A stretch of 64,000 bases of DNA from Pseudomonadota bacterium (GTDB lineage Bacteria > Bdellovibrionota_G > JALEGL01 > DATDPG01), in NCBI GenBank assembly GCA_043809315.1, contig JAZDDX010000007.1:71076-135075 (forward strand). The letters run 5' to 3'. Shown here in pieces: positions 42,494 to 45,203 of this stretch (position 1 is its first letter; each line of letters begins with the position of its first letter). Under the pieces are notes generated by a model that saw only the letters and a program-made list of their open reading frames with translations, ran no database searches and was not told the DNA's origin. A program made the translations under genes and the position numbers.

Positions 42494-42532
42494 CGTTGCC
42501 TTCGGCCCCAACGGCGGGCAGAATGGAGTCAC

Positions 42533-42943
42533 ATGGGAAAAACCGACAAGGAAAAGCCCCGTTCCGAGACCCTTCCCGAGCCGGTTCCGGCCTTCAGCGG
42601 AACCGATCGCCGGATTCGCGGTTCGCGACTTCATGTCTCGTTCCCGGTCACGGTGACCCACCGCGGGCACCCGATCCAGGGGTACGTGGAGGCGGTGAAC
42701 TTGAGCTGGTCGGGGATGCTCCTCGCCACCAATTTCCCGCTGAACGTCAAGGACGAGATCGTCCTGGAATTTCGTCTGCCGGAGAGTTACGTCTCGATCA
42801 CCGTCAAGGCGCGCGTCGTCCATCGCGAAGATGGGAGAATCCCGGAAGAAGCGACGCTGGTCGGCGTCCGCTTCCTGGAAGCGGACCCGAATGTCCAGCG
42901 CCTCCTGACCGGATTCGTCCTGGAACATCTTTTGGTCGAGTGA
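42533..42943 (+). CDS. Stand-alone PilZ-domain protein
   Basis: RRIRGSR and NLSWSG motifs, ARVV, GVRF. Confidence 0.85.
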   Translation: MGKTDKEKPRSETLPEPVPAFSGTDRRIRGSRLHVSFPVTVTHRGHPIQGYVEAVNLSWSGMLLATNFPLNVKDEIVLEFRLPESYVSITVKARVVHREDGRIPEEATLVGVRFLEADPNVQRLLTGFVLEHLLVE

Positions 42944-43968
42944 CCGTACTCCGGCGAAAACTTCTCGCCTGGTACCGGACCCACCACCGGAAACTCCCCT
43001 GGCGTGCGACGCACGACCCGTACCGCATCTGGGTTTCCGAGGTCATGCTCCAACAGACCCGTGTGGCCACGGTGATCCCGTACTTCAAGCGATTCCTGGC
43101 GAGCTACCCGACCGTTCGAAAGCTGGCCGCCTCCGACGAGGATCCGGTTCTGCGGACTTGGGAAGGGCTCGGGTACTATTCCCGCGCACGGAACCTCCAT
43201 GCAGCGGCGCGGGAGGTCGTGGAGAAATATGGAGGGAATCTCCCCTCCTCCTCGGCCGAACTCGCCTCCCTCCCCGGGTTCGGTCCCTACATATCGGCCG
43301 CCGTCGCCTCGATCGCCTTCGGGGAGTCGACCGCCGTCGTCGACGGGAACGTCCGTCGCGTTCTTTCCCGCCTTTTTGAAACTGCGTCCGCGGTCGATGA
43401 CCGCGCACAGGAACTGATCGATCCGAAGCACCCCGGCGACTTCAACCAGGCGGTGATGGAGCTCGGAGCACTGGTCTGTCTCCCCCGAAGTCCAAAGTGT
43501 GAGATCTGCCCGCTCTCAACCGACTGTCTCGCTCGGAAGCACGGCACGATCGCTGCGTTTCCCCCTGCGCGTGCAAAAACGAAGGTCCGAATCGTTCACG
43601 CCGTAACCGTGATCGTTCAAAATCGGAACCGGTATTTTGTGACTCAAAGGCCAATGAACGGACGCTGGGCAAGAATGTGGGAGGCCCCGACACACGAGTC
43701 AGCACGGGTAACCCGCCTTGAACTCGTGATGAATTTACTTATGAATGCCTACGGGCTACGGCTGAAAAGGTTCGAACGTATTGCTCGAATCGAACATCGG
43801 CTCTCCCATCAGACGATTCATACGGAAGTGATGTGTGCGGAGGGAAGAGATCACTCGAAGAACGGTACTTGGGTGACGCTTACGGAGCTTTCGGAGCTGT
43901 CGATGTCGCGCCTGCAGCGGGAAGCATTCCGGCGGGCGGTCTCCCCTTCATCAGATCGACGGCTTTGA
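42940..43968 (+). CDS. mutY: A/G-specific adenine glycosylase
   Basis: LPWR, WVSEVMLQQT, GLGYYSRARNL, LPG.G, VDGNV.RV, Cx6Cx2Cx5C; GTG 42940. Confidence 0.94.
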   Translation: MTVLRRKLLAWYRTHHRKLPWRATHDPYRIWVSEVMLQQTRVATVIPYFKRFLASYPTVRKLAASDEDPVLRTWEGLGYYSRARNLHAAAREVVEKYGGNLPSSSAELASLPGFGPYISAAVASIAFGESTAVVDGNVRRVLSRLFETASAVDDRAQELIDPKHPGDFNQAVMELGALVCLPRSPKCEICPLSTDCLARKHGTIAAFPPARAKTKVRIVHAVTVIVQNRNRYFVTQRPMNGRWARMWEAPTHESARVTRLELVMNLLMNAYGLRLKRFERIARIEHRLSHQTIHTEVMCAEGRDHSKNGTWVTLTELSELSMSRLQREAFRRAVSPSSDRRL

Positions 43969-44725
43969 TCGATTTGAACGGTTTACGGTCCTCGCTGAGT
44001 TCGAGGAGTTTCACCCTTCCATCGACCAGAGTAAGCCGGAAGAGGTCGGTGTTGGCAGGAACGATCCTCGCGGCATTCTGACAGGAGGCATTGAGAAAAA
44101 GGGAGAGAAGCCCGCGCACCGTCCCGAAATGCCCGACGAGCATTACGATTTTCGGACTCCCCGGCTTCTCGATCTCCGAAACCAACCCCTTGAGCCGTTT
44201 CTGTACGTCGTTCCTCGATTCTCCGTCGCCGCCGAATCGGTACGCACAGTCCGAATCGATCCGTCGAAGATTGTCCCGGGTCTCCGGAGCATCCGCCGAA
44301 AGCCCTTCTAGGTGACCGAACCCCATCTCGTTCAAATTGGGCCGGATCTCCGGGACGATCTTGAGCTGGCTCGCCAACGGTTCTGCCGTCTGGTGCGTCC
44401 GACTCAGCTCGCTGACGTAAATCGTTTGAATCCCGGAATCGGATAGCAGGTCCAGAAGCTTTCGCGCCTGTTCGATCCCCTTCTCGTCGAGCACGACCCT
44501 GGGATCGAGCTTCTGCCCGATGTTGACGCGCTCTTTGTTGGCGTAGGTCTCCCCGTGACGCGAGATGTAAATCGTTTTTTCCCAACCGAAGGCGCTCGAG
44601 CAGACGAGAAGGAAACCGAAAAGAAGAGAACTGGTGCCTGGGACTGGACTCGAACCAGCATGGCATTGCTGCCACCAGCCCCTCAAACTGGCGTGTCTAC
44701 CAAATTCCACCACCCAGGCGCACAT
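43880..44725 (-). CDS. Histidine phosphatase (PGAM superfamily) with signal-peptide-like segment; start unresolved because the ORF runs through tRNA-Leu
   Basis: RHGET, S.L.RT.QTA, L.E..FG, GES, VGH motifs. No in-frame ATG/GTG/TTG between the tRNA 3' end and RHG. Confidence 0.75.
   Translation of the reverse strand: MCAWVVEFGRHASLRGWWQQCHAGSSPVPGTSSLLFGFLLVCSSAFGWEKTIYISRHGETYANKERVNIGQKLDPRVVLDEKGIEQARKLLDLLSDSGIQTIYVSELSRTHQTAEPLASQLKIVPEIRPNLNEMGFGHLEGLSADAPETRDNLRRIDSDCAYRFGGDGESRNDVQKRLKGLVSEIEKPGSPKIVMLVGHFGTVRGLLSLFLNASCQNAARIVPANTDLFRLTLVDGRVKLLELSEDRKPFKSIKAVDLMKGRPPAGMLPAAGATSTAPKAP
44632..44719 (-). tRNA. tRNA-Leu(GAG), CCA encoded
   Basis: GCCTGGGTGGTGGAATTTGGTAGACACGCCAGTTTGAGGGGCTGGTGGCAGCAATGCCATGCTGGTTCGAGTCCAGTCCCAGGCACCA: cloverleaf, long variable arm, anticodon GAG. 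Confidence 0.97.
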
Positions 44726-44736
44726 TGCGGCCCACT

Positions 44737-44765
44737 CCTATAGTCGGGCGTGCCTGGGAGGTCAA
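44737..44765 (-). promoter_or_regulatory. Promoter for tRNA-Leu, TTGACC-N17-TATAGG
   Basis: Minus-strand TTGACCTCCCAGGCACGCCCGACTATAGG, ending 17 nt before the tRNA 5' end. Confidence 0.65.
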
Positions 44766-44831: not shown

Positions 44832-45203
44832 ATGTCCGATCCAAACAAGCGCGTCCATCCGAGAGCCGACTTCAAGATCGCGGTCAAGGTCGAGCACTTA
44901 AGCCGCCTCCAGCAGTTCTATTCCCAGGACTTGAGCAGCGGGGGAATCTTTCTCGAGGTCCCCGGGAAGCCGCCGGAGATCGGTGCCAAGCTCCGCCTTC
45001 AGTTTCAGGTCCCGGGTATTAAGAAGCCGATCGTCGTCGACGCCGAGGTAATGCACCAGCACACGTTCCAGTTGATCGACCCGAGTCTCCGGAAGAAGGT
45101 CGCCCGCCACGGGATCGGTCTTCGGTTTCTGAATCTCGATCCAAAGGATGCCGAGTTGATTCAAAAGCACGTGACCGGAAAGGATCTAAGTGTCGACCAC
45201 TAG
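44832..45203 (+). CDS. PilZ-domain protein with intact c-di-GMP motifs
   Basis: RVHPR (RxxxR), DLSSGG (DxSxxG), GIGLRF; ATG 44832. Confidence 0.88.
   Translation: MSDPNKRVHPRADFKIAVKVEHLSRLQQFYSQDLSSGGIFLEVPGKPPEIGAKLRLQFQVPGIKKPIVVDAEVMHQHTFQLIDPSLRKKVARHGIGLRFLNLDPKDAELIQKHVTGKDLSVDH

Follow-up and report, generated by a model that had tools for sequence, protein, structure and literature searches.

A tRNA-Leu(GAG) gene fused in frame to the 5' end of a histidine phosphatase gene: a shared deletion and a candidate translation start ahead of the tRNA

Bacterial operons that join transfer RNA (tRNA) genes to a messenger RNA (mRNA) are known, for instance thrU-tyrU-glyT-thrT-tufB and tyrT-tpr of Escherichia coli. 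Leaderless translation and initiation at AUU are known as well; ATT is a poor start codon, and in E. coli infC the AUU start is an autoregulatory device that comes with a Shine-Dalgarno site. A closer arrangement is that of selC, the gene of tRNA-Sec, which is nested in the selB open reading frame (ORF) of Alphaproteobacteria; it was described by bioinformatics only, and folding and processing of the tRNA are proposed to compete with synthesis of the full-length protein (Mukai 2021, PMC8124441). In full-text literature searches, selC inside selB was the only published case found of a tRNA gene nested in a bacterial ORF. Here we describe a tRNA-Leu(GAG) gene that lies in frame within the 5' end of a histidine phosphatase ORF, where the initiation region of the phosphatase would be expected. 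The locus belongs to a stretch of 64,000 nucleotides (GenBank assembly GCA_043809315.1, contig JAZDDX010000007.1, positions 71,076 to 135,075), which was analysed as a whole and is called the window below. Its genome, an assembly of 44 contigs, is designated G000, and four other genomes of the same family (G001 to G004) were compared with it.

The phosphatase ORF runs on the minus strand from 44725 to 43880 and comprises 281 codons. The tRNA-Leu(GAG) gene (44632-44719, minus strand), whose encoded CCA ends at 44632, forms codons 3 to 31 and the first base of codon 32. The original prediction, made from the sequence alone, of a complete tRNA-Leu in frame inside a phosphatase ORF is borne out by ARAGORN and the Rfam tRNA model, by the 281-codon ORF and by its His_Phos_1 domain. 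The tRNA had also been noted to be free of stops in this frame; it is the only open one of the three sense frames, and the phosphatase is joined in exactly that frame. Taken alone, an open frame through a tRNA is not remarkable in G000, because 60 of the 135 tRNA sense frames of this genome (60% G+C) are open. At 12 of its 45 tRNAs a sense frame stays open for at least 100 codons past the tRNA, and among these 12 only tRNA-Leu(GAG) is followed by a recognisable gene that has no start after the tRNA. When the peptide encoded by tRNA-Leu(GAG) was searched for in other proteins (1.84 billion representatives), 12 matches with E <= 0.001 and none with E <= 1e-10 were found; the five that were inspected were short, spurious-looking ORFs over tRNA genes.

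By sequence, the tRNA has the features expected of a functional bacterial tRNA-Leu, namely a cloverleaf, a long variable arm, a GAG anticodon, an intact acceptor stem and CCA, and it is not redundant in the genome. It reaches 47.7 bits with the Rfam tRNA model (gathering score 29) and is the sole tRNA of the window according to ARAGORN and the only Leu(GAG) gene of the assembly. CTC and CTT, the codons it reads, account for 40% and 17%, together 57%, of the Leu codons in 1,150 long ORFs. Orthologues were found in three of the four other family genomes, with 90% (G001), 90% (G004) and 86% (G003) identity, and none was found in G002. Upstream lie a -35 box, TTGACC (44760-44765, minus strand), and, 17 nucleotides past it, a -10 box, TATAGG (44737-44742, minus strand). 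They are very probably the promoter of the tRNA gene, because they are in register in four genera while the flanking sequence has diverged: TTGAC is invariant in the window, G001, G003 and G004, the -10 box reads TATA[CG][CG] in all four, and the motif TTGAC[CG]-17 nucleotides-TATA[CG][CG], already recognised in the window by the original prediction, thus keeps its position in all three related genera. A consensus promoter scanner did not call it, since the scanner demands T as the last base of the -10 box. Within the -10 box is the in-frame TAG at which the ORF opens, and the box overlaps an AGGAG. The base that precedes the tRNA (-1, position 44720) is C in the window; in G001, G003 and G004 it is T. 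Bacterial RNase P prefers U at -1, and the 5' processing of the tRNA may therefore be slower in the fused lineage.

The enzyme is, on the evidence of its domain matches, an ordinary His_Phos_1 member. The Pfam model PF00300 aligns with residues 52-244 over model positions 1-192 of 194 (E 8.8e-39; 133.6 bits, cut-off 21.7). The catalytic set of the family consists of RHG, a second Arg, an acidic residue and a second His, represented here by R56-H57-G58, R109, E133 and H199; R56, H57, G58, R109 and E133 are invariant across a six-sequence alignment. The best NCBIfam model, the alpha-ribazole phosphatase CobC equivalog TIGR03162, also begins at residue 52 and reached 86.9 bits against a cut-off of 162.9; no NCBIfam equivalog cut-off was reached. 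The best solved relative is CobC (6nru, E 4.7e-11). An AlphaFold2 model (mean predicted local distance difference test score 68.9) places a helix at 31-45 and strand beta-1 from residue 50, the latter with moderate confidence. From the Pfam match, the alignment and the catalytic residues, the mature phosphatase extends from W48 to P281 and the stop codon (43880-44584, minus strand). Cys160 and Cys215, a candidate disulfide, are both present in five of the six aligned sequences and both absent in G003.

The start-like in-frame codons among the first 80 are ATG 1, GTG 5, GTG 6, TTG 14, ACG 51, ATT 52, ATC 54, ATC 69 and GTG 78. The ATG (44723-44725, minus strand) lies in the pre-tRNA leader, 11 nucleotides past the -10 box and 6 nucleotides upstream of the tRNA 5' end, and is a candidate near-leaderless start; GTG 44711-44713, GTG 44708-44710 and TTG 44684-44686 lie inside the tRNA. 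The first three had been named before as the standard starts, to which the TTG is now added. Codons 15-50 hold no start-like codon in frame, and the first canonical start past the tRNA is GTG 78, downstream of R56-H57-G58, so that the absence of ATG, GTG and TTG between the tRNA and the RHG motif is confirmed. The further statement that only an ATT lies there is correct as to ATT 52, but ACG 51 and ATC 54 are start-like too. The ATT (I52; 44570-44572, minus strand) is the start in the NCBI-sourced annotation, whose product P0002 (230 amino acids) begins MYISRHG; no GGAG, GAGG or AGGA occurs upstream of it, and the residue is I in four of six aligned sequences and V and L in the remaining two. 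The start thus depends on the annotation source, 281 residues through the tRNA or 230 residues from the ATT, and the locus shows that annotation rules choose its start arbitrarily. Between the tRNA and the ORF neither a terminator-like site, in agreement with the original prediction, nor a promoter-like site was detected. No special structure emerged when 44540-44733 was folded (z-score +1.54), and the stretch downstream of the tRNA is unstructured.

The same arrangement is found in a second lineage. P0001, a protein from an independent metagenome, has 281 residues and matches the query over its full length with 88% identity; it begins with the same ATG and the same 29 tRNA-encoded residues, followed by ISLLFGLVLVCSNALA|WEK. 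Beside the tRNA stands a divergent PilZ-domain gene (44832-45203, plus strand), as in G001, G003 and G004, the three of the four other family genomes that have the tRNA. Because its orthologue P0038 adjoins P0001 on the same 2,624-nucleotide contig, the P0001 locus is the same locus as that of the window. In addition, two DNA contig runs of one study were examined, of which run X1 may be the source sample of the genome. A 348-nucleotide X1 contig covers 44592-44939 with two differences, including 41 nucleotides on the ORF side of the junction; one difference changes codon 2 from TGC to CGC and gives the residue of P0001. ATG 44725 is present in P0001 and in the X1 variant contig, and the leaders of G001, G003 and G004 are without it. 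Two checks suggested at the outset, for conserved phasing and open frame in relatives and for mis-assembly across the junction, are answered by these sequences: P0001 has the same ORF through the tRNA and the same join, and the X1 contig spans the join. Judged from these comparisons, a whole tRNA gene, in sense and in frame inside an ORF, has been kept in two lineages and in a near-identical contig, and the fusion is older than the split between the window and P0001.

Among the 15 genomes of the order, an orthologue of the phosphatase occurs in three (G000, G001 with 59% and G003 with 44% identity). The gene is absent from G004, whose mutY-tRNA spacer contains no phosphatase remnant by tblastn, and no orthologue was found in G002. 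A large protein collection added P0003, P0004 (the protein of G001) and P0005. A scan of genome contigs for further orthologues returned 14 loci, G003 being the only one found again; a metagenome-contig scan gave 64 loci with 32% identity at best, and the contig of P0001 was not among them; a search for shorter N-terminal fragment proteins scored none of 68 candidates. The phosphatases of G001, G003, P0003, P0004 and P0005 all start with an ordinary signal peptide, and initiation in G001 is laid out as GGGAGG, four nucleotides and ATG. The G001 phosphatase lies on a separate contig with this Shine-Dalgarno site and ATG of its own, and the tRNA-Leu(GAG) of G001 (L085:513-600), between mutY and PilZ, is reversed relative to the window, G003 and G004.

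The layout in G003 indicates how the fusion may have arisen. There the tRNA and the phosphatase are 14.4 kb apart, and the last 16 nucleotides of the tRNA recur as a direct repeat 14,413 nucleotides downstream (L092:1251-15647). Right behind the tRNA lies a tyrosine integrase gene and farther on are a large serine recombinase, a Schlafen/AlbA_2 plus HATPase_c_4 protein and a SocA/RelE-like pair. These features mark a 14.4-kb island, which may be a defence island, integrated into the 3' end of tRNA-Leu(GAG). Because integration took place at the tRNA 3' end, the right-hand flank displays the old chromosomal layout; this attR flank consists of CCA, a 31-nucleotide spacer with GGAGG, the codons GTG-ATT-AAA-AAT (M-I-K-N) and a hydrophobic core. 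This comparison gives good support to an earlier state in which the tRNA preceded, by 31 nucleotides and with no intervening terminator, an initiation region that belonged to the phosphatase itself. So is the loss of the spacer, the start and one to six codons, about 40-50 nucleotides in all, from the window lineage, a deletion that joined the tRNA CCA to the hydrophobic core of the signal peptide in the only open frame of the tRNA. That the 5' end of the gene had been lost at the tRNA was part of one of the two alternatives in the original prediction, and it fits both the attR layout and the Shine-Dalgarno site, start and n-region still present in G001 and G003. The mechanism may have been either a plain deletion or the faulty excision of an island. 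An island still integrated in the window was considered and ruled out, no second copy of the tRNA 3' end being left within its 64 kb. A normal ATG and ribosome-binding site in relatives had been listed as evidence of a local deletion or a sequence error; such a start occurs in distant relatives (G001, G003) but not in the closest one (P0001), which points to a fixed deletion rather than to a sequence error.

What remains of the initiation region is recognisable. Codons 32-47 (44585-44632, minus strand), starting at the last base of the tRNA, correspond to the h- and c-region of the ancestral Sec signal peptide and end in SSAFG before W48, as seen in the alignment with G001, P0003, P0004, P0005 and G003; the AlphaFold2 helix falls on the same stretch. 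In residues 33-47 a hydrophobic core precedes small residues at positions -3 and -1 (A-F-G before W48), and SSAFG|WEK of the window aligns with SNAFA|WEK in the signal peptide of the orthologues. The stretch, which had been called signal-peptide-like, is thus by homology a real signal peptide minus its n-region and start. A short positive n-region directly behind a start of its own is absent, and the tRNA takes its place. In both fused lineages the hydrophobic core and the small -3/-1 residues are kept (SSAFG|W and SNALA|W) without an insertion or deletion, and W-E-K-T upstream of the ATT is identical. The signal region has four Leu codons, each of them CTT or CTC, but a link to the tRNA was rejected, the probability by chance being about 0.11 since these codons make up 57% of Leu codons.

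Of 203 aligned sites in the mature enzyme, 22 separate the window from P0001 (27 of 234 with the tail), and the neighbouring PilZ protein shows 9 differences over 123 sites. Across genera the divergence is 38-55% for the phosphatase and 43-50% for PilZ, so that the phosphatase/PilZ ratio stays at about 1-1.5, where a several-fold rise is expected under neutrality. Tajima relative-rate tests, with the unfused sisters P0003 and P0004 and with P0005 or G003 as outgroup, gave fused versus unfused counts of 17/23, 13/20, 19/19, 17/15, 17/23, 15/20, 19/19 and 19/15 in the eight comparisons (all p >= 0.30). Continued constraint on the enzyme since the fusion, in two lineages, is well supported by these comparisons.

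We tentatively favour a start of translation at ATG 44725, or at a GTG or TTG inside the tRNA, on transcripts that RNase P has yet to cleave. Translation of unprocessed pre-tRNA, the other alternative in the original prediction, is thereby a possibility. The phosphatase would be transcribed from the tRNA promoter, and translation would begin at ATG 44725, a few nucleotides from the expected transcript start, or less likely at GTG 44713, GTG 44710 or TTG 44686 within the tRNA. The ribosome would read the tRNA as 29 codons of a long n-region and then the retained h- and c-region, and the enzyme would be exported with cleavage ahead of W48. A transcript on which a ribosome loads before the tRNA folds would serve as mRNA; otherwise RNase P would remove the start codon and the transcript would yield the tRNA. 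It is quite conceivable, without being probable, that the tRNA-Leu doubles as codons 3-31 in this way, that the near-leaderless AUG took over initiation, and that RNase P cleavage versus ribosome loading partitions every primary transcript. The output of the enzyme would then be tied inversely to tRNA maturation.

Several observations argue that translation begins ahead of or within the tRNA. The fusion falls in the one tRNA frame out of three that is open; the signal features, the reading frame and W-E-K-T are kept in both lineages; neither lineage has turned ATT 52 or ACG 51 into ATG; ATG 44725 is unique to the leader of the fused lineage; and the -1 base, which is T in all three relatives, is C there, while RNase P prefers U. 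An enzyme still active in its former compartment would account most simply for the fact that the rate of evolution has not altered. Leaderless or short-leader mRNAs moreover seem to be common in G000, as judged from a crude set of 797-911 long ORFs. The motif TANNNT occurs 19, 12, 27, 26, 13, 15 and 17 times at the spacings from 6 to 12 nucleotides ahead of start codons (total 129), against about 6-7 per spacing elsewhere (911 ORFs), and a Shine-Dalgarno 4-mer precedes 194 of 797 starts (24%) and 113 of 797 controls (14%). ATG 44725, 11 nucleotides past a -10 box whose transcript start is only inferred, falls within this enriched range, and its layout is one that the genome seems to use for leaderless genes. 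The PilZ gene at 44832 is itself an example of a likely leaderless or short-leader layout, with no Shine-Dalgarno site and a TATATT that ends 16 nucleotides upstream.

Other observations weigh against this start. Full-text literature searches found no experimental proof, for any bacterium, of translation through a functional tRNA gene. The -10 box is without the final T, and with the transcript start inferred the ATG is possibly 1-6 nucleotides from the 5' end. An n-region of 31 residues is unusually long, and its nearest arginine lies 19 residues before the hydrophobic core. Of the 16 codons of the signal region, 6 have diverged between the window and P0001, which is 3.46 times the rate of the mature part; for the unfused pair P0003/P0004 the corresponding ratio is 1.73. 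This divergence fits neutrality as well as relaxed selection. When neutral change was simulated, a simple signal-peptide test was still passed by 4,317 of the 20,000 sequences that had six residue changes (21.6%). Nor do the changes that separate the window from P0001 spare the columns conserved in the family, affecting 7 of the 69 columns invariant in the four unfused sequences and 20 of the 165 others (p = 0.82). Finally, the in-frame fusion and the ATG helped to select the site, and are hence weaker evidence than they appear.

A possible but rather doubtful alternative is that the start is ATT 44572, or else ACG 44575 or ATC 44566, and that the product is a cytoplasmic phosphatase of 230 residues. 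Its mRNA would come from the strong tRNA promoter, either by read-through or after 3' processing. The former signal-peptide codons would then be an untranslated, pyrimidine-rich 5' leader and the open tRNA frame would be incidental, as open frames are common in this genome (beyond 12 of 45 tRNAs for at least 100 codons). The NCBI-sourced P0002 has this start, and its product keeps the whole domain, since both the Pfam model and TIGR03162 begin at residue 52; strand beta-1, however, begins at residue 50 in the moderately confident model, before the ATT. The faster evolution of the signal region than in the unfused pair is compatible with neutrality. Against the alternative, the fusion is in frame, and no signal feature, W-E-K-T codon or reading frame has been lost. 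A poor start codon with no Shine-Dalgarno 4-mer ahead of it might be offset by abundant mRNA, as the promoter of a tRNA that reads 57% of Leu codons should be strong. Few genes of G000 use a Shine-Dalgarno site, and the stretch behind the tRNA is unstructured, which also speaks for this start; yet the single change to ATG has occurred in neither lineage. A shift of compartment should also have altered the constraints on the enzyme, whereas the enzyme evolves as fast as the exported sister clade. With the ATT as start, the locus would be a dated natural case of an exported enzyme made cytoplasmic by one deletion and then kept by selection.

It is improbable that the gene is a start-less relic, in which the deletion ended expression and both lineages carry a pseudogene still free of stops and frameshifts. 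This belonged, with the loss of the 5' end, to one alternative in the original prediction, and the comparison speaks against it, in that a lineage with 12% protein divergence carries the same fusion and the mature enzyme shows no acceleration relative to the unfused sister clade in any of the eight comparisons. The lack of a canonical start would be in keeping with a relic, as would the failure of the changes to spare conserved columns (7/69 against 20/165), the 11 and 12 of the 69 columns invariant in the unfused four that have changed in the two fused sequences, and the dispensability of the gene in the family (absent from G004, orthologue not found in G002). All 234 mature codons are nevertheless intact in both lineages, with R56, H57, R109, E133 and H199 kept, and the divergence is only about 1.5 times that of PilZ, as it is across genera, where neutrality would give several-fold more.

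An artefact, be it a base-calling error or a chimera joined at the tRNA during metagenome assembly, is hardly credible despite the 44 contigs of the assembly and the frequency of assembly breaks at tRNAs, for P0001, from another source and 12% diverged, has the same 281-residue ORF with W-E-K-T-I-Y in the same frame, the X1 contig (possibly from the genome's own sample) bridges the junction, and the fusion therefore appears to be a fixed deletion and not a sequence error. One variant of this explanation was suggested by an out-of-frame TTG (44583-44585) just ahead of the A6 run at 44575-44580, which one A fewer would put in frame; a frameshift at this site was ruled out, since P0001, P0003 and G001 all read W-E-K across the A-rich stretch in the same frame.

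On its 3' side the phosphatase faces a convergent mutY-like gene (42496-43968, plus strand, start uncertain), and the two genes stand tail to tail in the window and in G003. Their 3' ends overlap by 89 nucleotides in the window (43880-43968) and by 146 in G003 (L092:16320-16465). The longest mutY ORF begins with about 150 Arg/Pro/Gly-rich residues that have no domain match, its HhH-GPD domain starts at residue 180, and the MutY of G004 has 351 residues; the true start is probably far downstream of 42496. A match to the Rfam family HCV_J750 inside mutY (43149-43253, plus strand; 30.5 bits against a gathering score of 90) is very probably due to chance.

Elsewhere in G000 three other genes begin shortly behind a tRNA, in each case with no Shine-Dalgarno site between. 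The tRNA-Pro(GGG) of locus L107 (G000:C8:15560-15850) is followed 8 nucleotides past its CCA by the ATG of a 476-codon membrane protein; tRNA-Leu(TAG) of L108 (G000:C16:177900-178200) by ATGs 4 and 16 nucleotides on, for a protein with a signal peptide; and tRNA-Gln(TTG) (G000:C17:156288-156400) by a prs-like gene about 28 nucleotides on. DNA matches of these other tRNA-gene pairs in G001 to G004 comprised essentially the tRNA parts only. From these layouts, genes that start 4-28 nucleotides after a tRNA look habitual in G000, and tRNA 3' processing may create short-leader mRNAs there. Because of these genes and of the many leaderless-type starts, the lineage may suit the study of mRNA punctuation by tRNAs in bacteria.

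The enzyme shares the RHG core and the full Pfam domain with its His_Phos_1 relatives (CobC/alpha-ribazole phosphatase, PhoE and the fructose-2,6-bisphosphatase domain), and the small clade to which it belongs differs from the cytoplasmic homologues by its signal peptide. With no terminator-like or promoter-like site between tRNA and ORF and a divergent upstream neighbour, the locus is a candidate tRNA-mRNA operon, in which tRNA and phosphatase may be co-transcribed. In the known operons of this kind the tRNA promoter drives a downstream protein gene without a terminator, which corresponds to the earlier state deduced from G003 with its 31-nucleotide spacer, but the protein gene there has a ribosome-binding site and a start of its own, whereas the window phosphatase has neither. 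The likeness to the AUU of infC is that ATT 52, alone of the start-like codons, would yield the whole domain with the tRNA left out; the infC codon has a Shine-Dalgarno site, whereas the ATT of the window has none and encodes a strand residue conserved in the family. Each of these elements has precedents, and it is their combination, a tRNA that replaces the initiation region of a gene while that gene, by the comparisons above, stays under selection, that is not known from elsewhere. As with selC in selB, a complete and apparently functional tRNA gene lies in sense and in frame within a conserved ORF (PMC8124441). The selC gene, however, stands at the 3' end of its ORF and adds a C-terminal extension, whereas tRNA-Leu(GAG) occupies the 5' end, where it has taken the place of the gene's own initiation region and would provide both the start and the n-region of a signal peptide. 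Moreover, tRNA and protein belong to one pathway in selB/selC as described there, whereas the tRNA and the enzyme of the window have no functional link, and unlike that of selB/selC the origin of the present fusion can be reconstructed, as a deletion. In the literature searched, a dual fate of a transcript as tRNA or mRNA, decided by RNase P, was proposed only bioinformatically for selB/selC (PMC8124441) and never for the start of a gene. If the start ahead of or within the tRNA is the true one, a single stretch of DNA would be tRNA and protein-coding sequence on the same strand, with RNase P cleavage switching the fate of the transcript, and the locus would be the first chromosomal case in which the start of a gene depends on translation through a functional tRNA gene.

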